NCBI GenBank assembly: GCA_038134595.1
Contig: JAYPVM010000005.1
Location: 21,408 to 85,407 of the forward strand
Origin: Pseudomonadota bacterium
GTDB taxonomy: Bacteria; Bdellovibrionota_C; UBA2361; OMII01
DNA: 64,000 bases
Direction of reading: 5' to 3'
The notes under the pieces are model-generated. The model had not been told where the DNA came from. It did no database searches and saw nothing but the letters and a program-made list of their open reading frames with translations. Below, piece after piece: positions 13,585-27,525 of this stretch (position 1 is its first letter; the number at the start of each line of letters is the position of its first letter). Both the position numbers and the translations under genes were made by a program.

Positions 13585-14973
13585 ATGCACCGAGACGATT
13601 TTAGACGTGAAAGCGGCGAAATGAAAGAAGAGACACATCATAGCTCACATGTGCCCGATGCTATAGATGGCGCAATAACACCACCATTGGACCGCACGTT
13701 AATTCTTGATCTCTTAATTGAAACGGCACTGACCTCTGACAACCCCGTGGAGGAGCTCCATGCCATTCAAGCTGATTCCCGATTCGACTACAAAGGCGCA
13801 CAGAGGGATTTCTGTGACACGCTCTGGAATATTGAACAACGACACTTTGATAAACTAGTATCTTCCTCACAATACTCAGCCGAGCTTGTAGGTGCTATAA
13901 GGCACCGCGGCGAAATATTTGTCCAACTGAATGCCTATCACATCCCGTCAGCATCCATCAATGCATGGCTACAACTGGCATCTGAAGAGATTGAATTCCT
14001 CAATCATCTACCGGAATGGAACGACGCCGACGTTCTCCTTTGCTCACATGCGCTCTCTGTTCTAGAGGAGCTTGTCGTAAATGGGCCGTCCGAATGGTCA
14101 ATATATGAAAAACTTCAGGCCAATATTCTTCAACAACTAGAGGGGATGTCACACCGTTTTTTTCACGATGAAAATTTATCCTCACCTCCGGAGGAGGCAA
14201 ACAGAGTAGCTCTGCTCTCTTGGTTAGTTCTTGCAAATGATTCTGGTATTGATTCCCTCAAAAATGAGGCGGCTGGCCTAATCCCGCAGCTACTCGAAAT
14301 CTGGAAATTAGTGGATCAAAGAGACGGCGATTCAGAGTCAGAAGATGAATCCCTCTATCCCCAGAGTGAGTGCGACAAGGAAGGGGATACAGACTCCGAA
14401 TTTTTATTAGAAAATCTGGAAAATTGGCGGGCGAACAACCAAGAGGAATCCACGGATGAGACATTCGCAATTGACTCAGATGAGGACAACCTGGAATGGC
14501 GAGAAGGCTTTGAGTTATCTGAAATCCAACAGTGGGAACATGCGTTAACTTTAGCTCTCCAGGCCGGCCAGTCGAGAATCGATTTAGATGATGAGTTCAT
14601 ACTAGTCCTACACACAGCCGATATAGGCTCCGATCTGTGGCAGTCTGCTTTTGACGGACTCTTAGTCTCGTCCTATGCAGAGAGCCTACGCGTTATTGAA
14701 TCGTTGTTCGACACAGTGCAATCGATGCCGGGGGCAATGCGGCATATTACATCACCCCTCGATGCATCCGAGAGAATTTCCCACAAATTCTATTATTCCC
14801 CTCCTGACCTTCTGCAAGACGCACTACAAAAAGAAAAACCTAGGGCTAGGCGAAAGATCTTAAAAATGATCTCTAAATATATCGAAGATGAAAAACTCTC
14901 GGGGGGTGAAACTGAAGTGATGGCTTCAAGGTTCAATAAACTTCTTCGAAACCTTCGTGGATTAAAGCGATAA
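13585..14973 (+). CDS. hypothetical protein with a strongly acidic central region
   Basis: 462 aa. AAGGAG RBS 9 nt upstream of the ATG. D/E/S-rich segment (DGDSESEDESLYPQSECDKEGDTDSEF...EESTDETFAIDSDEDNLEW). No recognisable domain. Confidence 0.6.
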   Translation: MHRDDFRRESGEMKEETHHSSHVPDAIDGAITPPLDRTLILDLLIETALTSDNPVEELHAIQADSRFDYKGAQRDFCDTLWNIEQRHFDKLVSSSQYSAELVGAIRHRGEIFVQLNAYHIPSASINAWLQLASEEIEFLNHLPEWNDADVLLCSHALSVLEELVVNGPSEWSIYEKLQANILQQLEGMSHRFFHDENLSSPPEEANRVALLSWLVLANDSGIDSLKNEAAGLIPQLLEIWKLVDQRDGDSESEDESLYPQSECDKEGDTDSEFLLENLENWRANNQEESTDETFAIDSDEDNLEWREGFELSEIQQWEHALTLALQAGQSRIDLDDEFILVLHTADIGSDLWQSAFDGLLVSSYAESLRVIESLFDTVQSMPGAMRHITSPLDASERISHKFYYSPPDLLQDALQKEKPRARRKILKMISKYIEDEKLSGGETEVMASRFNKLLRNLRGLKR

Positions 14974-15940: not shown

Positions 15941-18712
15941 TTAGAGCTCAAGCGCATTCATGAGTTCTTCCCTGCTAATTCCACCTACGAAACCCTCTTG
16001 AGTGTTACTCGCTGCGTAATCACCTAACGTTTTAGCCTGCCCCTTCTCTTTTCGCCTCAAATTCCAATGAATAATCTCATCAACTTTGCACCCTACTAGC
16101 GAAATTATATTTACGGTACCGGTCTGACCGATCCGATGAATTCGATCAACGGACTGCATCCAATGTTCTGCATTCCACGTTTTTTCAAGATAAACGGCAG
16201 TTTGAGCGGCTGTCAGTGTTATTCCGACACCGCCAGCAGCTGGCACCGCTACTAATATCGAAGGCGAATCCTCCTCTTGAAATGCTCTAACTGTCTTTTC
16301 CCGCACAGAAGTCGCCACTTCACCAGAAAACGGTGCGGCACCATATGATTTATAGCGGTCACATAACTCTACGATATTTCCAAGGTAATTCGTCCAAATT
16401 ACCATTTTCTGCCGATGTTCGCCGACAACTTCCCGCACAAGCTCATCTAATTCTACAAATTTAGCAGGCTCTCCTGTCCACTGAGGATCGATTAAACGAG
16501 GGTTTGAAGCTACTTGCACTGCCCGAAGATACTCTTCAAGGATATTGGTTATTTCTCGGACAAACTGCTCTCCAGAGAGACTTCGCATGCGTAGCATCAA
16601 TCCTTCGCGAATTTCATTATACCGCTCTAGCTGGGTCCCTCGAAGCTCAACCTCCCGAAGCGAAAACGTCTTCGCAGGTAAGTTTACAACATTCTCCTTT
16701 CGCCTCCGAAGCATTACCTCATGTACTCTATGAATACTTTCGCGGACTTCATCATCTCGGAACTTTTTGACGGCATACTGGCTAAATTCCGTGCCGAGTT
16801 CAGCAACCTTTGAAAGCCATTTGTAATAACTCTTACCGAGCCTAAGACCTCCGTCAGCTATCTTCATTTGAGCCCAAATATCAGACACATCCTTTGGTGT
16901 AGGAGTACCGCTTAATAAAACCCTTCGGTCACAGGCACAAGCAACCTGACTGACAGCCTTAAAAGTCTTGCCGGAGGGATTCTTAATGCGCTGTGACTCA
17001 TCTAAACACAGTAAGGTCTTTTGACTACGAACGAGAGCCTCAACTTCAGGGCTAACATATTCTAGTCGAATCGCCTCATAATTTACGATAAGCACATCAC
17101 AGGACGCACTTCCACTCGATAACAGACGAAGATTCCAAGCCTTAGCCTTTTTGTCTCCGGACAGGGTATGCACCTTCAGGTCAGGAAACCACATAGCAAC
17201 CTCCCTCGCCCAGTTTCGCGCAAGTGAGTTAGGACAAACAACAAGAAGCTGAGAACAGTCTTCCATGTTTCGCAACGACCAAAAATAACTAAGCACAGAG
17301 AGCGTCTTACCCAAACCCATATCATCGCCTAAAAATGCATAGGGCGTCTTCATTAACCAGGAGACAGCTACGCGCTGATGGGGAAATAACCGCTTGCACT
17401 CTTCAAGACTGAGACCTGAGATTCCATCATAATTGACATCTTGCAAGCCTGCATAAAACCTCGCCTGCTCCAAACGTTGAATTCTATCTCTACAGTCTTC
17501 CAGAAGTCGTTCAAAAGACTGACTGATAGGAAAAGGATTTTCCCCGAAGTCGGTACATAGCCGATCAATCTCTTGCTTTATTGACAGGAGCTTTGAATCG
17601 GGAACCTCTAATAAAGGACTAGTTGCGGAGTCCTGGTAACTACCGCCAGTCTCCTCCCTAAAAGTATCGAATATAAGTCCGCGCAACTCTCGATCGATTC
17701 CGCCACCAATTAAAAGCGCCCCTCGACCTGACTCCAAAGTTTTCCAAAGACTCGCCGAATCGAGTAAATCCGCTGCCTCATCCTCAAGAACAACGTCCCC
17801 AGAACCAATTCGGCCGAAAACTTCCTCTCTCCTATCTGATATAAATGAATGAACATCGCGCGCAAGCCATACTGGGAATGGAAGAGAGGATATTCTTCCA
17901 GCCAACTGAATCAGTTCTCGCTCATTTAAACTAATAGGCTGCCCCGACTGCCGTCGAAAACCGGGAAAGGCAAGCTTAAATTGCTCTCTTGAAAAACTCT
18001 GGGGCTCAAACGAGCCAACATTTTCGCTCGAAACATCAATAAAAGGAGTGAGGAGCGATTCCTTCAATTCCTGACCGGTGGCGCTACCTCTGTCCTTTTC
18101 AATGGATTGGCGCACGGCAGCAGTCTTTTTAAGAACGAGCCCAGCTTGTTCCTCAATAGCGAACAAAATGTTTTTATCGCGGCACCGCTTGACAAAGGAG
18201 CTTAGCTCGGAGGCCGGTAGCGTGAATGCCTTATCCGAGGAGCAGAAGACTGCAGATGAGAGTCGCTGTAGGATACGATAAGCCGGATGCCCCACGCGAG
18301 CCACTACCTTAAGCCTTCTAGCCTTATCTTCAAGCCGTATAATTACCTCTAATGGAGCACCCGCAATCGCTATTTCTGGCACTGCGAACGGATTGTTACG
18401 GAGACACTCCAAAGCCTCCCCTATAGCTAACGGCGGCTCCTCAAGCGGATACACTCCATCTAGCACGCCCACGCCGGAAAATTCTGGGAGCGTTACGACC
18501 CGATGATAATCAGAGAAAGCGATACGCCAACTCTTATCCTCTGCATTGTAACGAGAGGTTGCCACCGCCTTAATAGCCTTGACCCGATCTGGCCTATACC
18601 GGAAGTCCACGAGAACAAATTGCCCGTTACGGAAAAATGAAACTATTGGTCCAGACTCCTGCCTCCACCAACGTTTAGAACCCTTCTTGGTGGTATTCTT
18701 CGCTTTAGCCAT
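15941..18712 (-). CDS. SNF2-family DEAD/DEAH-box helicase
   Basis: 923 aa. SNF2_N motifs (LGDDMGLGKT, DESQRIKN) and helicase-C (HRIGQ). Lys-rich N-terminus. ~450-aa N-terminal region of unknown function. Confidence 0.9.
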   Translation of the reverse strand: MAKAKNTTKKGSKRWWRQESGPIVSFFRNGQFVLVDFRYRPDRVKAIKAVATSRYNAEDKSWRIAFSDYHRVVTLPEFSGVGVLDGVYPLEEPPLAIGEALECLRNNPFAVPEIAIAGAPLEVIIRLEDKARRLKVVARVGHPAYRILQRLSSAVFCSSDKAFTLPASELSSFVKRCRDKNILFAIEEQAGLVLKKTAAVRQSIEKDRGSATGQELKESLLTPFIDVSSENVGSFEPQSFSREQFKLAFPGFRRQSGQPISLNERELIQLAGRISSLPFPVWLARDVHSFISDRREEVFGRIGSGDVVLEDEAADLLDSASLWKTLESGRGALLIGGGIDRELRGLIFDTFREETGGSYQDSATSPLLEVPDSKLLSIKQEIDRLCTDFGENPFPISQSFERLLEDCRDRIQRLEQARFYAGLQDVNYDGISGLSLEECKRLFPHQRVAVSWLMKTPYAFLGDDMGLGKTLSVLSYFWSLRNMEDCSQLLVVCPNSLARNWAREVAMWFPDLKVHTLSGDKKAKAWNLRLLSSGSASCDVLIVNYEAIRLEYVSPEVEALVRSQKTLLCLDESQRIKNPSGKTFKAVSQVACACDRRVLLSGTPTPKDVSDIWAQMKIADGGLRLGKSYYKWLSKVAELGTEFSQYAVKKFRDDEVRESIHRVHEVMLRRRKENVVNLPAKTFSLREVELRGTQLERYNEIREGLMLRMRSLSGEQFVREITNILEEYLRAVQVASNPRLIDPQWTGEPAKFVELDELVREVVGEHRQKMVIWTNYLGNIVELCDRYKSYGAAPFSGEVATSVREKTVRAFQEEDSPSILVAVPAAGGVGITLTAAQTAVYLEKTWNAEHWMQSVDRIHRIGQTGTVNIISLVGCKVDEIIHWNLRRKEKGQAKTLGDYAASNTQEGFVGGISREELMNALEL

Positions 18713-18803
18713 ACGTTCTTTAAAACAGAAAACAACCGCACAAAAAAACTAGCGCCCCAAACCCTCTTTTTCTAATGCGAATCTATACGGCTAATACTAT
18801 AAT

Positions 18804-19955
18804 GTGACTGGTGGGCGTCAAGGCATTAGTAACGAGATGACAAGTCTATCTATACGGAATATCACGAAGCGTTTTGGGGGTCTACCCATCCTCGACAATA
18901 TCTCAATCGACATCGAAGATGGTGAATTTTTCTCACTTCTCGGTCCGTCTGGTTGTGGCAAATCAACTCTCCTGCGGATCATCGCTGGACTCGAGCAAGC
19001 CGACTCGGGAACAATAGCCGTTGGAGGAGACTCGATCGACCACCTCCCTCCACAAAGAAGAGGCATAGGCTTTGTATTTCAAAACTATGCCCTTTGGCCC
19101 CATATGACCGTTCTCGATAACGTACTTTTTGGACTCAAAGCCAACGGGACTCCTCCGAGTGTTCGAAAGAAAAGGGTCGAAAACGTGCTTGAGCTTGTTC
19201 AACTCTCCCATCTACGCGCGCGATTTCCACATGAGCTCTCCGGAGGACAGCAGCAACGTGTCGCGCTCGCGCGCGCTCTTGCAATCCGTCCTTCGGTTAT
19301 CCTTCTTGACGAACCATTGTCTAACCTCGACGCTCGCCTAAGGCTTGATATTCGAAACGAGCTTGCGGCACTTCACCGAGAACTTGGCACGACCACGGTA
19401 TATGTCACTCACGATCAAGACGATGCCCTCTCGCTCTCAAATCGAATCGCACTTGTAAATTCGGGACAAGTTGCACAAATAGGCACGCCAACGCAGCTCT
19501 ATTTCACTCCCCAATCAAAGTTTGTTGGAGAATTTCTTGGATCAACTAATTTAATTGATGCAACTGCCTATAAGCCAGGTATACACGACGAACTACACGT
19601 CTCGATAAATGGGATTTCCCATGCGCCTATAATCCTTCACCAGAAGTTAGCGCTCGCTTCTTCGGAAGATAAAATAAACGGCACGCTATCCATTAGGCCA
19701 GAGAGTATTAGAGCTTCGTGCAACCCCGACGAGCAATCTGGTAAACTCGAAGCCGTAGTAGTTAGTCGTCAATTTCGGGGGTTTTATGAACTCATCGAGC
19801 TGAGATTGAAAAATGGGGTAACCCTTAACCAGATTACAACTGAGCGTAGTCCAGACGACGGAGTAGTTGAGGGCGCTACCGCTTATATCACCTGGACTGC
19901 AAGTGACTTACTATTTCTTCCTGAAAGTATGGAGAAAGCTTGTGCGAGGGCATAG
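18804..19955 (+). CDS. ABC transporter ATP-binding protein (FbpC/PotA/ThiQ-like importer ATPase with C-terminal TOBE-like domain)
   Basis: 383 aa. Walker [10 protein letters not shown], signature LSGGQQQRV, Walker B ILLDEP. True start may be the internal Met of MTSLSIRNI. Confidence 0.9.
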
Positions 19956-22941
19956 AATTCAGCTCATAGTACTGGCATTATTTGCAAGTCTATTCTTATT
20001 TTATCCTCTCTCTCACATATTGGTTTATTCAGTTCAGTACAACAATGAACTATCACTTCGTTTCTTTAAAATCCTTTTTACCACGAAGCTCTATCAAGAT
20101 TTAATTCTTCACTCGTTAAACATAGCGCTTGCTGTAACAATCATCTGCTCCGTATTCGCCTATTTCATAGCATTCTTGTTAACTCGCTTTAACATCCCAT
20201 TACAAAAAATACTGGCGACCTTGGTCATCGCTCCTCTTATCGTCCCACCATTTGTAGGAGTAATCGGTGTAAAGCAGCTTTTCGGCCGTTTCGGAAGCAT
20301 AAACCTCCTCCTGTTGCACAATAATATTGTAGAGGAACCGATAGACTGGCTAGGATCAAACGGATTGATTGGTGTTATCGCTCTTCAAGTTGTTCACTTG
20401 ATGCCGATACTGTTTTTGACGCTACGAGCGTCACTGAGAAATTCTCACCAATCGCTTGAGGAAGCGGCCCTTGTATCTGGTGCAACAACTCTGTTTAGCC
20501 TTCTAAAGATTACACTTCCCCTTACCCTTCCCGGGTGGTTCGCGGGAGCTACCTTAGTTTTCGTTGCGAGCTTTACCGACCTCGGCACTCCGCTGATGTT
20601 TGACTACAGAGAGGTCATAAGCGTTCAGATATTTAACATGCTCTCGGATATAAATACGAACCCAGTTGGATACTCTCTTGTCGTTTTTACTTGCATTATT
20701 TCGATTGTTCTCTATACGCTCTCTCGATCGCTATTTCTCTATGGCGGATTTGTCTCAACGGATAAGTACTCAAAACGAGCTCCGCAGTTTGTAACATCGA
20801 AGTCTACAGCTTGTATCCTTGGCGGGATCGTTTTTGCTTATGGGCTTATGGCATCTATCCCGCAACTCTCCCTTGTTCTTACTGCGAGCAGTGAACGGTG
20901 GTTTATGACTATAGCACCTGAAAAGCTCACTCTAAACAACTTCCTACTGGTCTTTTCGCATCCACTTACAGCTCGAAGCATTGCAATAAGCATTCTATTG
21001 AGCGCGCTTGCAACAATCCTTACCATTCTTCTGGGATTAACTTCATCGCATATTATTTCACGAGCCGGCCGGACTATCAGCTCCGTTGTAGAGTCGATCT
21101 CTCTTGTACCACTTGCTATTCCCGGCTTAGTTTTTGCATTCGGATTTATCGGAGCGTTTGCCGGAAGTATAATCGACAACCGAGTCAACCCCCTACCACT
21201 GCTTGTATTCGCATATACGGTCAGGCGACTTCCGACCCTTGTACGAATCACAACAGCGGGCTTTCAAGAGGCTAATAAATCGCTTGAAGATGCGGCGTAT
21301 ATAGTCGGAGCGGGTCGCTATCAAACCATGCGTCAAATTATCCTACCCCTAGTAAAAAGACATTTATACGCGGGAGCGTTACTCACGTTTGCATATTCCA
21401 TGATTGAAGTAAGTGATAGTCTTTTTCTCGCCCTGGAGGAGAAGTATTACCCTATAGCGAAAGCTATGTATGCGCTTATTGGCCGCCCAGATGGGATAGA
21501 GCTTGCGTCCGCCTTGGGTGTTATCGTAATGGCAACACTAATTATTCTCTTTTATCTCTCGCAAAGATTGTCGGGCTCGACTCTTAGGACACTGTCAGCG
21601 ATTGTCGGAATTTTAGTAGTCGCGCCACGGCCTTCACTAGCGTCCGCTGACGAACTCGTTTTACTATCGCCTCATTGGGAGGGTATTCGCCACGAATTTT
21701 CTGAAGCTTTTGCTCGATCATGGGAGAAGCGGACGGGCAAAACGGTGGAATTTCGCTGGATGGACGTTGGAGGAACCTCCGACATAGTCAAATACGTAAA
21801 GAGCGAATTCAAGCGGAACCCAAACTCCATCGGAGTCGATATCTTCTTCGGGGGCGGAATAGACTCTTTTCTTGAGCTAGAGCGGTTTGGGTTCCTAACG
21901 CCTGCCAAGATAAGTGAGCGGGTGCTTGCCCAGATACCATCTGACATAGCTGGAACACCGCTGTTTTCAGAGTCTCATCTCTGGTTTGCAAACTCCATGA
22001 GTACATTCGGGATTCTTTGCAACCTCGATGCCCTAAAACTTCTCCGCAAGCCTGCTCCTCGCTCCTGGGCAGCCCTGGCGAGCCCAGAGTACAATAGCTA
22101 TATTAGCGCGGGAGATCCCAGAAAAAGTGGGAGTATGCACGCCATGTATGAGATTATCCTGCAAGGATACGGCTGGGAGAAGGGTTGGGAAATCATTTAT
22201 GGAATTGCCGGTAATACCAGACGATTTACTAACAACGCAAGTCAGGTTGGCAAAGACGTAACTACTGGTGATGCCCTTTGTGGGATAGTCATCGACACGT
22301 ACGCTAATGAAATAGTGAAGCGAGTCGGCGAGCAGCATGTCTCATTTATCCTTCCGGAGGATTTCGTCTCGGTCAATGGTGATGGAGCTGCTATCTTGCG
22401 CGGCGCTCCAAACATGCAAGTGGCGCAAGCATTTGCTGAATTTCTACTCACCAAAGAAGCCCAGACGTTGTGGTATGGGAAAAAAGGGGTTACTGGAGGA
22501 CCGCAAAGATATGAAATAGGAAAGCTCTCGGTGCTACCATCGATTTATGATACAACTGCTCCCGCTTCGCTATTCCGTTCAAATCCATTCCGCTTGCCAA
22601 ATATGCTTTCGTACAACGCCTCCCTTGCATCCGCTAGGTGGAACATTCTAAACGATTTGTTTGGGGCATTTATTGTAGACACCCACAGCAACCTCAAGTC
22701 GTTATCATCAAACCAACTACCCAATCAAGCGCCAGTTTCAGAAGAGATGATAAACAACTTACAGAAGACAACCCCGTGGGGAGATGACCAGAGCTTGCGA
22801 GCACAAATTGTAGCCCAGTGGAGCACGCAAGCACAAAAACTAGTAGCTGAATCGAATCGCCAAGCCGGAGTCTCAAAAATTCCTGTTCTATTGCTTTTAG
22901 CAAGTCTTATTCTAACGCTGGGCGCTCGAAGGTTCCGATAG
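19867..22941 (+). CDS. ABC permease (two-repeat FbpB/ThiP-type) fused in-frame to an iron(III)/thiamine-family periplasmic solute-binding domain
   Basis: 1024 aa. Residues ~1-570 are a 12-TM-type double permease. Residues ~600-1024 are SBP-like. The junction carries a signal-peptide-like segment (LSGSTLRTLSAIVGILVVAPRPSLASA/DE). A likely alternative start is GTG 19942, overlapping the ATPase stop. Confidence 0.85.
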   Translation: MRALPLISPGLQVTYYFFLKVWRKLVRGHRIQLIVLALFASLFLFYPLSHILVYSVQYNNELSLRFFKILFTTKLYQDLILHSLNIALAVTIICSVFAYFIAFLLTRFNIPLQKILATLVIAPLIVPPFVGVIGVKQLFGRFGSINLLLLHNNIVEEPIDWLGSNGLIGVIALQVVHLMPILFLTLRASLRNSHQSLEEAALVSGATTLFSLLKITLPLTLPGWFAGATLVFVASFTDLGTPLMFDYREVISVQIFNMLSDINTNPVGYSLVVFTCIISIVLYTLSRSLFLYGGFVSTDKYSKRAPQFVTSKSTACILGGIVFAYGLMASIPQLSLVLTASSERWFMTIAPEKLTLNNFLLVFSHPLTARSIAISILLSALATILTILLGLTSSHIISRAGRTISSVVESISLVPLAIPGLVFAFGFIGAFAGSIIDNRVNPLPLLVFAYTVRRLPTLVRITTAGFQEANKSLEDAAYIVGAGRYQTMRQIILPLVKRHLYAGALLTFAYSMIEVSDSLFLALEEKYYPIAKAMYALIGRPDGIELASALGVIVMATLIILFYLSQRLSGSTLRTLSAIVGILVVAPRPSLASADELVLLSPHWEGIRHEFSEAFARSWEKRTGKTVEFRWMDVGGTSDIVKYVKSEFKRNPNSIGVDIFFGGGIDSFLELERFGFLTPAKISERVLAQIPSDIAGTPLFSESHLWFANSMSTFGILCNLDALKLLRKPAPRSWAALASPEYNSYISAGDPRKSGSMHAMYEIILQGYGWEKGWEIIYGIAGNTRRFTNNASQVGKDVTTGDALCGIVIDTYANEIVKRVGEQHVSFILPEDFVSVNGDGAAILRGAPNMQVAQAFAEFLLTKEAQTLWYGKKGVTGGPQRYEIGKLSVLPSIYDTTAPASLFRSNPFRLPNMLSYNASLASARWNILNDLFGAFIVDTHSNLKSLSSNQLPNQAPVSEEMINNLQKTTPWGDDQSLRAQIVAQWSTQAQKLVAESNRQAGVSKIPVLLLLASLILTLGARRFR

Positions 22942-22989
22942 ACACTTGTTACATAAGAGAGAAACACTCGACCACTAATACACTCTTAA

Positions 22990-23256
22990 CTACTTGCCTA
23001 AGAGCTCTTCAAGTTCTCTGCAGCGATTCTTTATTTTCTTTATCTCAGTGATTCTAGAGTGAAATAAAGACCAGAAAAGCGGCTGGGGAAGTCGTTCGCG
23101 TTCCTGAGAGAACCTAAGTATGGTCTGCTTCAACTCCGATAACTCATCAGCCAAACTGCTTCTCTGCAAAGGCTTTGTCTGAGTCGTCTCACTTTCTCGT
23201 TGATCAGATTTTAACTTCATAGCATAACCATCATTCCCTAGTGGGTCTGGTGTCAA
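22990..23256 (-). CDS. hypothetical small charged/coiled-coil protein
   Basis: 88 aa. Co-oriented with and 54 nt downstream of the lytic transglycosylase gene. No domain recognised. Confidence 0.3.
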   Translation of the reverse strand: MTPDPLGNDGYAMKLKSDQRESETTQTKPLQRSSLADELSELKQTILRFSQERERLPQPLFWSLFHSRITEIKKIKNRCRELEELLGK

Positions 23257-23310
23257 GAGTTTTTAAATTCAACCAATGCGGTTTTTACATCACCGACCAC
23301 AGGTTACAGG

Positions 23311-24261
23311 TCAGACTATCTCCTGTTTCCATTCATGGTAGTCTCGCAAGATAGTGAGTGCATACTTCATGCACTCCCGAGGCACTCGACGTGTGCCAGA
23401 AGTTGCCGATTTAACGTGGCCAGGCCCCCAATTATAGGCAACAAGGGCAAATAATACGTTGTCGTCGTATTCTCTTTTCAAATGCCTTAGATACTCGATC
23501 CCAATTTGTATATTATACGCAACATCACTCAATGGCCGTGGCTTCAGACCTTTGCTTTTGGCTATCCACTCTGCGGTCCTAGGCATTAACTGCATCAATC
23601 CACGTGCGCCCTTTTGCGAAACTGCATGCGTGTCAAAGGCGCTTTCAGATTTTATCACCGCAGCAAGAAAGAGAGGATCAATTTGGTAGCGATAACTTGT
23701 CGATACTATAACCCGTGCTAACGCTCGACTATCAACGTGAGGCTTCCCGTGCTTTTTCACTATCACTGCCACTCTATCTTCGACGGTTTTAATCGAGATC
23801 GGCTGCTTATTAGTTGCTACTAATGACAAACCTGTAGAGAGCACATTTGGAACTAAACGACTTGGCACCATCTTTGTATGTTCTAGCCGATTCTTTCCAA
23901 CTCTATTTTTGACACCGAGCTCGTCAGTATCTGGATAATCTTTCAATTGACGGGAAAGGCTCTCAAAAGAATGGCTAGAATGTCCTGATTTCTGATGGAG
24001 CGCAGATATGGCGGAGAAACTAACTACACGGAGAAACACTCCTACTGAGAGTATCCCCACAAAAAGCCCGAGCCATCTTATAGATTTCTTGGGGTAGCTA
24101 TTTTTTTTTGCACAACTGGAAATACCCGCCCCGAGGATATCGGCGGCAATTATGCGCCCCTGGGGCAGAATATATCCCCTAGCGACACTACCGCTCCTAT
24201 CGATTGCCCGACTCGTTTTGCTAGGTTTCTCAATTCCCTTTGGCATCGTAAGACTTTCCAA
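23311..24261 (-). CDS. lytic transglycosylase (SLT domain) with N-terminal membrane anchor
   Basis: 316 aa. SLT catalytic region (ESAFDTHAVSQKGARGLMQLMPRTA, AYNWGPGHV). Confidence 0.8.
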   Translation of the reverse strand: MESLTMPKGIEKPSKTSRAIDRSGSVARGYILPQGRIIAADILGAGISSCAKKNSYPKKSIRWLGLFVGILSVGVFLRVVSFSAISALHQKSGHSSHSFESLSRQLKDYPDTDELGVKNRVGKNRLEHTKMVPSRLVPNVLSTGLSLVATNKQPISIKTVEDRVAVIVKKHGKPHVDSRALARVIVSTSYRYQIDPLFLAAVIKSESAFDTHAVSQKGARGLMQLMPRTAEWIAKSKGLKPRPLSDVAYNIQIGIEYLRHLKREYDDNVLFALVAYNWGPGHVKSATSGTRRVPRECMKYALTILRDYHEWKQEIV

Positions 24262-24570: not shown

Positions 24571-27525
24571 CTATTCAGTCTGACTGGTAAAGCCCGATGC
24601 CCGCTCAGCCCTGTCTAATACATACAACAATTCCTCCCGAGAGAGGTGAAAATCGCTTCCCTTCTCTCCATCCAAAGAATTCTTTATCAGTTGCCTTTTT
24701 CGACGCTGTAACTCCAACACTCGATGCTCGACCGTATCTTTTGCCACTAGTTTGTGAACTACAACGGGATTTTCCTGTCCTATCCTATGAGCTCTGTCGG
24801 CCGCCTGATCTTCTGCAGCAGGGTTCCACCACGGGTCTAGGATATAAACGTGGTCAGCTGCCGTTAAGGTTAATCCGACACCACCTGCTTTAAGCGATAT
24901 TAGCAACACATCAGGCCCTGAGTCCGACTGAAAACTCTCTACCACCGCACCCCGATTGGTCGTATTGCCGTCAATACGTCCAAAGCTTATCCCTGAGTCG
25001 GTGAGAAGAGGTTCTACCTTATCGAGCAACGAAACCCACTGAGAAAAAACAAGGCACCGATGACCATACGCCTTAGATTGCTCTAGATGGTGCATTAAAA
25101 GAGATAGTTTACTCGAAGTCTCACTGGTTATTCCGGGTACCATCCCTGTGTGACAGCAGGCTTGTCGGAGCCTGAGAAGCATCTCCAGAATAGAAAATGT
25201 CCCGCCACCACTATCTAGTTTATCAACTACAGAACTTTTTGTACTCGTAAGAATTGCGTCATACACCACTCGCTCTTCGCTCGAAAGCTCGCACTCTAAA
25301 ACCATTTCCGTCTTAGGTGGCAATTCCTTAGCAACGTCTCGTTTGTATCGTCGCAAGACAAATGGAGCTACACGAGCCCTAAGATGTGATATATCAACAC
25401 TCTCTCTTGACTCTTTGCCCTGCAGATATTTTCTTTCGAATTCCGCAAGTGTGCCCAGCAATCCAGGGTTTAAGAAGTTACACTGACTCCACAGATCGCG
25501 GGCGCTGTTTTCAATAGGAGTGCCCGTTAAGCATATCTTATAGCGACTTTTTATTTGATACGCAGCTCTTGCCACCTGGCTATATGGATTTCGGATTACA
25601 TGGGCCTCATCAAGTACAACGGTCTCCCAATCACTAGCTGCCAGGCTAGCAACATCTGCTCGAAGAATTCCATACGTAGTTATCGTTATCTGCGCGTTTA
25701 GATCCAATTGTCGTTCTGCACCGTGATAAAGTGCCGTTTTTCTACCGGGCAGAAATGACGCAACCTGTTCTTGCCAACTCGATACAACTGAGGTCGGACA
25801 GACAATCAGAGACTTGCCACGTAGGGCACACAGCGCCTGAACAGTCTTGCCTAGGCCCATATCATCGGCAAGGAGTGCGCCTATGTCGTGGTCCATTAAA
25901 AACGATAGCCAATTTACACCTACTTTCTGATAAGATCTAAGGCTGCAGGTTAATTCAGCCGGAAGCTGGCTATCGGGGATACTCGAACAGTCTGCCAATC
26001 CCTTACCAAGCCGAGAGAAATACCGCGGGGGATCTACACCAAGCGATTCTGATATCTCCAATACGTCAGGCAAAAATACTCTAGAGCAACTTTCAGCGTC
26101 CCTTCGTCCTTGAAGCAGCCGTTGCAGTGCCTCACTATGAGCCAATAACCACTGATCCGGAAAGCCCAGCCATCCAAAACCCTCGTGATAATATGCACCA
26201 TTGGACCTAAAATCCCACGCGTCCAGTATCGTTTGTGCGGAAATGCTATCCCCATTGGGCGCTTGAAACTCAACTAGAAGACCAGTATTGCTTCCTGTTA
26301 CGGTCGGCACCAACGCAGTTGTCGATCGACACAGCGAGATATCACTTCCTTCAATACACTTATCAGCAATCTGCGCCGCGATATTTACGACCTTCTGCCC
26401 GGAGAATACAGTCGGAACATCCCTACGAAGTCCGTACTGCTGCTCGACCTGCCGCAACAATGCGCCCTCCTGCACCATGTCACGAATTGGTACCTCGTAA
26501 CGATTTTTGATTTCACACTGCCCCAAGCGAATTTCTGCTATGCAAGGATCTCCGTATTGGATTACCGGAAGAACACTTAGAGCTTGTCCGTGCTCAAAAG
26601 CCTGTGCCTCAAATCGAACCGTTGGACGTAATTTTCTTGCCTTTGGTAGAGAGCACCCTATCGTCTCAACCGCAATCTTGGCGCGAAGATTCGGGATAAC
26701 TCTCGTAGAGAGATCGAGAGAATCTGAATGGTTGAAAATCTTACCAGCCCCTTTAAGCATCTCAAAATCTTCATACCGAAGAGAGGAGTCCTCGATTGCG
26801 CTAAGAATACCATCAAGGATAACCGCGCTATTATCAAAAACCTCTGTTGTAGCGTCAGCCATTTTTCTACGAAGACAATACCCCTCAGAAACATCTACCA
26901 CCTCCGCCACAACAGGCATAGCCTCCGGCGAGACCCGGATTGGTTCACCGTCCAATTCAACATGGCGGACTCGAGCTAATGATGGGAGCAGATACCGCAT
27001 AGTCTGAGGATCGAGCACACCGTTCTTCTGAGTCATTAATACGTGATCGATATTCATCTCCTGATCGCTCATTGAGAAATGAGCAGTCGAATTTGATCCG
27101 TTTAACTTCAAGGTCTGTAGTAGCGATGTTTTTACCTCTATACGAGAATCGTTAGAGACAAGATAGCGAGTAAACGATAAAACACTGCCCTGACGAAAAA
27201 AAGCATGCACCACCGAGCCCTGGCGAACACTTGCAACACTCGAGGAATTCTTACGAACCGCTCCTTGCTTTACGGCGATAAGGGTTGCTAATACATGTTC
27301 GCACGGGTCAACATCTCCCCCACAATCACAATCCCAGCTTTCATCTTCCGGTGTTAACGAGACGATTACATCTCGGTCGCGACTAGCTGAATGGATATGG
27401 TATTCATGCTCGCCTAGATCACCTGTGCGGATCCACGTAATTTTAGCATGCCGAGCGAGTGTTACAGCCGTTGTCCAAACGCTCCCGTCGCTTAACTTCC
27501 TTGCTAACGCAAATAAACTATCCAT
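24571..27525 (-). CDS. SNF2-family helicase with N-terminal SWIM zinc finger
   Basis: 984 aa. SWIM CxCxnCxH (WDCDCGGDVDPCEHV) near the N-terminus. SNF2_N (LADDMGLGKT, DEAH-like LDEAHVIRN) and helicase-C (HRIGQ). Confidence 0.9.
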   Translation of the reverse strand: MDSLFALARKLSDGSVWTTAVTLARHAKITWIRTGDLGEHEYHIHSASRDRDVIVSLTPEDESWDCDCGGDVDPCEHVLATLIAVKQGAVRKNSSSVASVRQGSVVHAFFRQGSVLSFTRYLVSNDSRIEVKTSLLQTLKLNGSNSTAHFSMSDQEMNIDHVLMTQKNGVLDPQTMRYLLPSLARVRHVELDGEPIRVSPEAMPVVAEVVDVSEGYCLRRKMADATTEVFDNSAVILDGILSAIEDSSLRYEDFEMLKGAGKIFNHSDSLDLSTRVIPNLRAKIAVETIGCSLPKARKLRPTVRFEAQAFEHGQALSVLPVIQYGDPCIAEIRLGQCEIKNRYEVPIRDMVQEGALLRQVEQQYGLRRDVPTVFSGQKVVNIAAQIADKCIEGSDISLCRSTTALVPTVTGSNTGLLVEFQAPNGDSISAQTILDAWDFRSNGAYYHEGFGWLGFPDQWLLAHSEALQRLLQGRRDAESCSRVFLPDVLEISESLGVDPPRYFSRLGKGLADCSSIPDSQLPAELTCSLRSYQKVGVNWLSFLMDHDIGALLADDMGLGKTVQALCALRGKSLIVCPTSVVSSWQEQVASFLPGRKTALYHGAERQLDLNAQITITTYGILRADVASLAASDWETVVLDEAHVIRNPYSQVARAAYQIKSRYKICLTGTPIENSARDLWSQCNFLNPGLLGTLAEFERKYLQGKESRESVDISHLRARVAPFVLRRYKRDVAKELPPKTEMVLECELSSEERVVYDAILTSTKSSVVDKLDSGGGTFSILEMLLRLRQACCHTGMVPGITSETSSKLSLLMHHLEQSKAYGHRCLVFSQWVSLLDKVEPLLTDSGISFGRIDGNTTNRGAVVESFQSDSGPDVLLISLKAGGVGLTLTAADHVYILDPWWNPAAEDQAADRAHRIGQENPVVVHKLVAKDTVEHRVLELQRRKRQLIKNSLDGEKGSDFHLSREELLYVLDRAERASGFTSQTE

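Follow-up and report, generated by a model that had tools for sequence, protein, structure and literature searches.

ATP-binding cassette (ABC) importers of the FbpABC/AfuABC kind (9j4r; AfuA, 4r72-4r75; P5PA, 6wce; VcA0625, 8x1a) combine a two-repeat permease of 12 transmembrane (TM) segments, with two EAA loops, with a solute-binding protein (SBP) of the cluster-D fold and an adjacent TOBE-domain ATPase, and their SBP is a separate soluble periplasmic protein. In OpuA and GlnPQ of Lactococcus lactis, by contrast, the substrate-binding domain (SBD) and the transmembrane domain (TMD) belong to one polypeptide, in the order TMD-SBD in the former and SBD-SBD-TMD in the latter. The fused SBD of OpuA stays attached via an anchoring helix and an 11-residue linker, the sequences of which are not conserved among related species (PMC11065425). 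Both proteins form homodimers with 2 or 4 SBDs, and take glycine betaine or amino acids by means of SBDs from other SBP clusters. A different arrangement comes from Bradyrhizobium japonicum: its cytochrome b-c1 precursor, FbcH, is reportedly cut at a signal peptide within the chain, and cytochrome c1 keeps its C-terminal anchor. Here we analyse a gene from a stretch of 64,000 nucleotides (the window: positions 21,408 to 85,407 of contig JAYPVM010000005.1, assembly GCA_038134595.1, Bdellovibrionota) in which an FbpB-type permease and an SBP are encoded as a single chain, joined by a segment that looks like a signal peptide and probably, if by a modest preference, is still cut like one. Coordinates below are window positions on the + strand unless stated otherwise.

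Compared with the FbpABC/AfuABC importers, the locus has the same permease architecture, SBP fold and adjacent ATPase; the difference is that the SBP lies within the permease open reading frame (ORF) and is lengthened by about 100 residues and a C-terminal TM segment. The C-terminal SBD would reach the outside as that of OpuA does, by way of a hydrophobic segment that lies between it and the TMD. Unlike OpuA and GlnPQ, this permease is a single-chain pseudo-heterodimer with one SBD, of the FbpA/AfuA type; the SBD is followed by a C-terminal anchor, which the Lactococcus proteins lack; the host is a member of the Bdellovibrionota and not a Gram-positive bacterium; and the junction conserves a signal peptidase motif at positions -3 and -1, where the anchor and linker of OpuA are non-conserved and uncleaved. 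Its resemblance to FbcH lies in a single ORF that runs from a polytopic protein through an internal signal peptide and a periplasmic domain to a C-terminal TM segment, the partners of one complex arising from one precursor. The proteins themselves are unrelated (a respiratory complex and an ABC importer), and the cleavage is experimental in FbcH and predicted here. We found no description of FbpB-type permease-SBP fusions, or of bacterial SBPs anchored by a C-terminal TM segment, in the searchable literature. A first-pass annotation of this DNA had called permease-SBP fusions rare, which is right for this transporter family and too sweeping in general, SBD-permease fusions being well known from OpuA and GlnPQ.

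The ORF runs uninterrupted from 19867 to 22941, with 1024 codons and no internal stop, as the first-pass annotation had said. This mechanical ORF opens with TTG 19867; the gene itself likely starts at GTG 19942 (19942..22941, 999 aa), judging from the sequence, in which GGAG stands 7 nt upstream of this GTG and the GTG overlaps the stop of the preceding ATPase gene. Public assemblies call the same 999-aa protein (P0001, 100% identity). A search space of 5.8 billion proteins yielded about 100 clusters of proteins of about 1000 aa, at 38-100% identity and with an identical Pfam set, and unfused permeases (563-565 aa) appeared only below that level of identity. We also surveyed the genomic loci on contigs taken from one genome per species, which gave about 29 loci with the fusion, mostly in freshwater metagenome-assembled genomes (MAGs) labelled Bdellovibrionota and in some labelled delta-/Proteobacteria. 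Among the closer relatives every complete locus has the permease and the SBP in a single ORF, with no stop at the junction, and the reading frame is kept although junction indels are numerous. Synteny with the window, in the order SNF2 helicase, ATPase, fused gene, SLT, SNF2, Dus, DUF3298, is preserved at two loci with 47-51% identity (L083 and L084), which marks them as orthologues in which the fusion has been retained. No separate SBP gene lies near the fused gene, in the window or at these loci. Members of 522-626 aa in the 90% cluster of P0050 were considered as split genes and rejected: they start at an internal methionine of the permease and read through the junction, and their sequences indicate truncated gene calls.

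These observations bear directly on whether the fusion is an artefact, that is, an assembly or sequencing error, or a recent pseudogenisation in which the stop was lost in this genome only. Separate ORFs in the order permease-SBP do exist in the distant relatives L034 and L055. Yet the same 999-aa gene lies behind an identical ATPase gene in two independent assemblies derived from different Sequence Read Archive runs, the single ORF persists, indels notwithstanding, in some 100 clusters and in every complete locus of the closer relatives, the orthologous synteny is preserved, and even the shorter cluster members read through the junction. We regard an artefact as practically negligible: the fusion is real, conserved and orthologous. 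Of the lost stop codon put forward in the first-pass annotation, error and recent decay are refuted by this conservation, and what survives is the loss of a stop as the likely ancient origin of the fusion.

The junction (21562..21648) has the three-part layout of a signal peptide, with an n-region, QRLSGSTLRT (21562-21591), an h-region, LSAIVGILVVA (21592-21624), and a c-region, PRPSLASA (21625-21648). It reads ...SQR-L(TTG 21568)-SGSTLRTLSAIVGILVVAPRPSLASA/DELVLLSPHWEG, the slash marking the predicted signal peptidase I site, A/D in the context ASA/DE, between nt 21648 and 21649 (ORF residues 594 and 595, or 569 and 570 counted from the GTG). The assignment is based on this sequence, on the n/h/c pattern of the family, on conservation at -3 and -1 and on homology to the signal peptides of stand-alone SBPs. 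We aligned the 99 full-length fused proteins and anchored them on the picked small-x-small site, which lies a median of 8 residues ahead of an invariant SPHWEG. The n-region is basic throughout (about 3 K/R within the 8 residues before the core), and the sequence of the hydrophobic core is not conserved. Position -1 carries 3.70 bits (88 Ala, 8 Ser, 2 Cys and 1 Gly), position -3 carries 2.98 bits (Ala in 76 of the 99) and position -6, occupied by Pro, Ala or Ser, 1.74 bits; positions -2, -4, -5 and -7 are variable, at 0.65-0.90 bits. A-x-A occupies the picked site in 70 of the 99 proteins. When the last 25 residues were permuted with their composition kept, the shuffles gave a mean of 26.8 and a maximum of 38, and random permease windows gave 11.8 of 99. 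The signal-peptide-like junction of the first-pass annotation, with its n-region, hydrophobic core and AxA, is borne out by these counts. Small residues at -3 and -1, with A-x-A, are the textbook recognition pattern of signal peptidase I, and here they follow an internal n/h/c segment behind a TM segment that ends in the cytoplasm, the arrangement of FbcH. Divergent fused lineages also keep small residues at both positions (AQA/Q, AIA/Q, AFA/D, TYA/Q and SYS/E), with one weak case. The junctions of P0097-P0099 have a much longer cytoplasmic n-region, with up to about 30 extra Ser/Thr-rich residues, and their predicted cleavage site is followed by a Ser/Pro-rich linker some 20 residues long.

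Where this segment came from is indicated by relatives in which the SBP is a gene of its own. In L055, a Bdellovibrionota MAG, 2 nt separate the TAA of the permease from the GTG start of an SBP gene, whose product carries VIKLRLIIICFLGLLSRIAPLQA/DDLIVISPHWDG... and has a TM segment with a basic tail at its C-terminal end. In L034, where the SBP gene is likewise 3' of the permease, the gap is 60 nt; this SBP has the leader ...FLSTALSCTYA/QEQDELVVLSPHWEG and a similar C-terminal anchor. An exhaustive HMMER search, run with the mature SBP part against 1.84 billion representatives, returned 1854 matches, 329 of them at E <= 1e-30. The best 150 of the 1854 are mostly stand-alone proteins of about 430-490 aa that match from residue 20-45, and only about 6-8 are fused. 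All 46 of the stand-alone, SPHWEG-bearing proteins examined have an N-terminal signal peptide, which stops short of the first β-strand by 2-5 residues; about 20 of the 46 also have a C-terminal TM segment with a basic tail. Since the signal peptides of the stand-alone relatives lie at the equivalent place, the junction derives from what was once an N-terminal signal peptide. In those relatives -1 is Ala in 27 of 46 and -3 in 15 of 46; by these sequence counts the fused junctions are at least as canonical as the true signal peptides.

The anchored stand-alone SBPs (L055, L034 and L033; P0135, P0137 and P0139-P0146) have the same SPHWEG, FGGG and DPRKSG motifs and the same helical extension as the fused protein; they are separate genes with a start of their own, located directly 3' of the permease in L055 and L034. 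The comparison points to an ancestor in which a secreted, C-terminally anchored SBP was encoded directly 3' of the permease. Gene order varies further out. In the Gemmatimonadota locus L033 the SBP gene is 5' of the permease and keeps the C-terminal anchor; in Verrucomicrobiota/Chthoniobacterales loci (L049-L082) it is also 5', and the SBP has neither the HWE motif nor a C-terminal TM segment. The SBPs of L049-L082 end in a basic amphipathic helix. The stand-alone subfamily (P0132-P0277 among the matches, with the 329 at E <= 1e-30) is large and seems to be uncharacterised; many of its members have the C-terminal TM anchor, and one, P0154, instead has a lipobox-like LLSC leader. In a neighbour-joining tree of the SBP domains, which has no support values and long branches, the group of the window falls in one large fused clade beside a stand-alone anchored SBP, and five other fused representatives are scattered among stand-alone anchored SBPs, which hints at several independent fusions.

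The C-terminal end of the chain, absent from the first-pass annotation, changes the mechanistic picture. The SBP core is followed by a helical extension of about 100 aa (22558..22857; AlphaFold2 helix 893-968, with conserved R899, W900, N904, D905, R953 and W960), which, by target lengths, is absent from the crystallised FbpA/AfuA proteins of about 310 aa. After it come a TM anchor (...IPVLLLLASLILTLGA) and the basic tail RRFR (22858..22938), so placed by the homologues and by AlphaFold2, the protein ending in ...IPVLLLLASLILTLGARRFR. A hydrophobic segment followed by a K/R-rich tail closes 99 of the 99 full-length fused homologues, and AlphaFold2 models the anchor as a confident helix (973-998). 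Sequence and model together predict a periplasmic-type domain with its own C-terminal TM anchor, as in FbcH. The basic tail is predicted to be cytoplasmic by the positive-inside rule, which would leave the SBP domain bracketed by two membrane segments.

We propose that the fusion goes back to the loss of the stop codon that had separated the permease gene from an adjacent downstream SBP gene, the SBP already having both its N-terminal signal peptide and its C-terminal anchor. The last permease segment, TM12, has its end on the cytoplasmic side, which would allow the one-time signal peptide to go on inserting N-in/C-out and exporting the SBP domain; transfer would then be stopped, and the domain anchored, by the hydrophobic segment and basic tail at the C-terminus, and signal peptidase I would cut after A-x-A (ASA/DE, nt 21648/21649). 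The products would be a permease with a leftover signal segment and a C-anchored SBP, made 1:1 and inserted side by side, and would match the two mature proteins of the unfused relatives. At the level of the protein, tryptic digestion would give the peptide PSLASADELVLLSPHWEGIR if the predicted site is intact, and the cleaved SBP N-terminus would correspond to the semi-tryptic peptide DELVLLSPHWEGIR. Export topology and cleavage are predicted here from sequence. We think it somewhat probable that the precursor is cleaved into permease and anchored SBP, a preference that rests on the conservation of -1 and -3 amid a drifting core, on the contrast with OpuA and on the low confidence of the modelled junction. 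The full-length AlphaFold2 model has a pLDDT of 84.5 and a pTM of 0.82; in it residues 546-568 form a coil at pLDDT 35-42, one of only two stretches below 50, and the first SBP strand (DELVLL) begins exactly at +1 of the predicted cleavage site of the window protein.

The competing possibility is that the junction stays uncleaved as a 13th TM segment, so that the SBP is tethered at both ends, by TM13 and TM14, in an OpuA-like arrangement with a second anchor. The single uninterrupted and conserved ORF would suit this, and the roughly 18 residues from the last K/R of the n-region to -1 could be just enough to cross the bilayer. OpuA and GlnPQ do work with SBDs that are covalently tethered through short linkers, and the pTM of the model suggests a defined arrangement of SBP and permease. 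A plain anchor, however, has no cause to keep Ala at -1 and -3 and Pro, Ala or Ser at -6 while its surroundings drift, and the anchor and linker of OpuA are non-conserved as reported; the junction is also modelled as low-confidence coil, unlike the helix of the C-terminal anchor. Signal peptidase I normally cuts where an accessible A-x-A follows a hydrophobic core that is short and inserted N-in/C-out. We lean against a lasting double tether, without counting it as remote. The conserved -3/-1 motif likewise argues against an SBD that stays covalently attached, the trait of OpuA and GlnPQ. Of the first-pass proposal of a fusion that includes a former signal peptide, the genuine fusion stands, on the strength of the 100 or so clusters and the stand-alone homologues with signal peptides; the persistence of that peptide as an extra TM helix is doubtful, because -3 and -1 are conserved as in a cleavable signal and the segment is not modelled as a packed helix.

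Several points weigh against cleavage as we propose it. The 99 fused sequences are related, so the conservation counts are non-independent, and the rule by which sites were picked favours small residues, a bias that the shuffle control corrects in part. The apolar core has a median of 12 residues at the junction and 13 in the C-terminal anchor of the same proteins, and the length of the h-region was for this reason dropped as an argument for a signal and not an anchor. By analogy with the 11 residues of OpuA, the 8-residue c-region could serve as a linker. Low pLDDT is expected of a genuine, poorly constrained TM helix too. Finally, the selective benefit of a fusion is not obvious if the chain is cleaved anyway; as far as one can be suggested, it may lie in stoichiometry and co-localisation, or the fusion may be neutral and tolerated since cleavage restores two products.

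A third possibility is that the ORF effectively contains two genes, the SBP being translated from an internal start, the TTG at 21568, besides the fusion or in its place. In the window this in-frame TTG stands directly before the n-region, and the stand-alone relatives begin their SBP gene at the equivalent place. The TTG has no Shine-Dalgarno (SD) sequence, though (the DNA upstream of it reads TTTTATCTCTCGCAA), whereas the start of the gene itself has GGAG at -7. We scanned the junction DNA of the window and of 24 further fused loci for in-frame ATG, GTG or TTG codons with an SD sequence. No start codon is conserved at the junction among these 25 loci; in only 3 of the 25 does a start combine with an SD-like core (4 nt or more), the positions of these three not being equivalent, and L004 and L023 have no ATG, GTG or TTG there. 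A promoter and terminator scan of 18500-23400 gave counts not above those of shuffles, with no promoter-like enrichment and nothing at the junction. There being no stop codon at the junction, termination-reinitiation coupling is impossible. A second gene opened at the TTG, which the first-pass annotation had offered as an option, has very little going for it.

The permease half is a 12-TM, single-chain double permease of the FbpB type. Repeat 1 (TM1-6) spans 19942..20739 and repeat 2 (TM7-12) 20779..21576, its final helix ending at aa 545; both are delimited by Pfam, AlphaFold2 helices and Foldseek. Each has an EAA loop, EEAALVSGA...ITLPLTLPG (nt 20458-20535, aa 173-198) and EDAAYIVGAG...IILPLVKRH (nt 21286-21363, aa 449-474). 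Pfam finds two BPD_transp_1 (PF00528) stretches to about aa 570, followed by SBP_bac_6/11/8/1 at aa 658-875, and in Foldseek the first half of the model matches Thermus thermophilus FbpB (9j4r_A) with a target TM-score of 0.85. TM segments were counted from the AlphaFold2 helices and the FbpB match, crude hydropathy having missed two weakly hydrophobic permease helices. No curated NCBIfam cut-off was reached (best scores 130 bits against 210 required, and 106 against 593); the sub-threshold matches are PhnU2/PhnS2, ModB, CysT, PotB and ThiP. Both Pfam and the structural matches (FbpB; AfuA/P5PA/FbpA) agree with the first-pass description of a two-repeat permease followed by an SBP of the iron(III)/thiamine family type.

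Directly 5' of the fused gene, and overlapping its start, lies the gene for the partner ATPase (18804..19955), identified from its translation, with the Walker A motif GPSGCGKST and the LSGGQ signature, and from the Pfam domains ABC_tran and TOBE_2 on the identical gene in L001 and L002. A perfect TATAAT directly precedes GTG 18804, the mechanical start of this ORF (18795-18839), and for this reason the in-frame ATG 18837 is the more likely start of the ATPase. Together the two genes form an operon for an FbpBC/AfuBC-like type I ABC importer. In L083 (3411-10063) three opposite-strand genes, a PALP-domain enzyme and two small ORFs, lie between the ATPase and the fused gene, and the operon is broken there.

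The SBP core (21649..22557) has the FbpA/AfuA/P5PA fold according to Pfam (SBP_bac_6/11/8/1), sequence matches in the Protein Data Bank (6wce at 1e-15, 4r72 at 3e-13, 8x1a and FbpA), Foldseek and its invariant columns, and bears the motifs SPHWEG and FGGG (21841-21864), GDPRKSGSMH (22111-22140) and DTY (22288-22308). In Foldseek the SBP half matches AfuA, P5PA and FbpA binding proteins with target TM-scores of 0.80-0.86. The best superpositions are with P5PA (pyridoxal-5'-phosphate), AfuA and VcA0625 (hexose-6-phosphates), at 0.83-0.86; the ferric binders FbpA, FutA and HitA come next, at 0.70-0.82, as expected of a cluster-D fold. The iron ligands were compared through a HMMER alignment to Haemophilus influenzae FbpA (2o69/2o6a), a sequence alignment only. 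FbpA Glu57 aligns to a Gly of the family-invariant FGGG, and Thr stands in the place of Tyr195; Tyr196 is present, as it is in AfuA and P5PA, and the alignment of His9 is ambiguous. By this alignment two of the four ligands of FbpA (His9, Glu57, Tyr195 and Tyr196) are missing. The anion-binding helix cap is retained: DPRKSGS aligns to DPRSSGT/DPQSSGT in the comparison with AfuA/P5PA-type proteins, which have GG at the position of Glu57, at an identity of only 18-21%. The replacement of Glu57 and Tyr195 makes "iron(III) transport system permease", the public label, insecure, and an anionic or phosphorylated ligand, suggested by the nearest relatives, is at least as likely as bare Fe3+. Neither the surroundings nor the leader of the operon help here: the conserved neighbours (SNF2 helicases, SLT, Dus and DUF3298) give no hint of the substrate, and a Rfam scan of the upstream DNA for riboswitches or regulatory RNAs gave no match at E <= 1.

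The operon is flanked by large genes for SNF2-family helicases (15941-18712 and 24571-27525, both on the - strand) and by a lytic transglycosylase gene, also on the opposite strand. The helicase gene at 24571-27525 begins with a SWIM-like Cys/His motif, CDCGGDVDPCEH. Further upstream, an ORF at 13585-14973 encodes a very acidic, Glu/Asp/Ser-rich protein of 462 aa with no obvious domain.

Work on SBD-permease fusions has until now concerned two Gram-positive families, OpuA and GlnPQ, in which the domain stays attached. The present family extends this kind of fusion to FbpB/AfuB-type single-chain permeases of a diderm lineage and brings two unusual additions, a C-terminal TM anchor on the SBP, a mode of anchoring binding proteins better known from archaea, and a junction that evolves like a cleavable signal peptide. 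We would give an even chance to the wider proposition that these proteins are importer precursors separated by signal peptidase I, with the SBP C-anchored, an arrangement that possibly evolved several times and was tolerated or favoured because cleavage restores 1:1 products. The family is also of practical interest for annotation: its proteins of about 1000 aa at present bear no label beyond "iron(III) transport system permease" or "hypothetical", and the assignment to iron is doubtful, two of the four FbpA ligands being absent. If the predicted cleavage is true, the family would provide a natural ABC importer assembled from a processed precursor, and a clean example of a gene fusion tolerated because an existing processing site undoes it.

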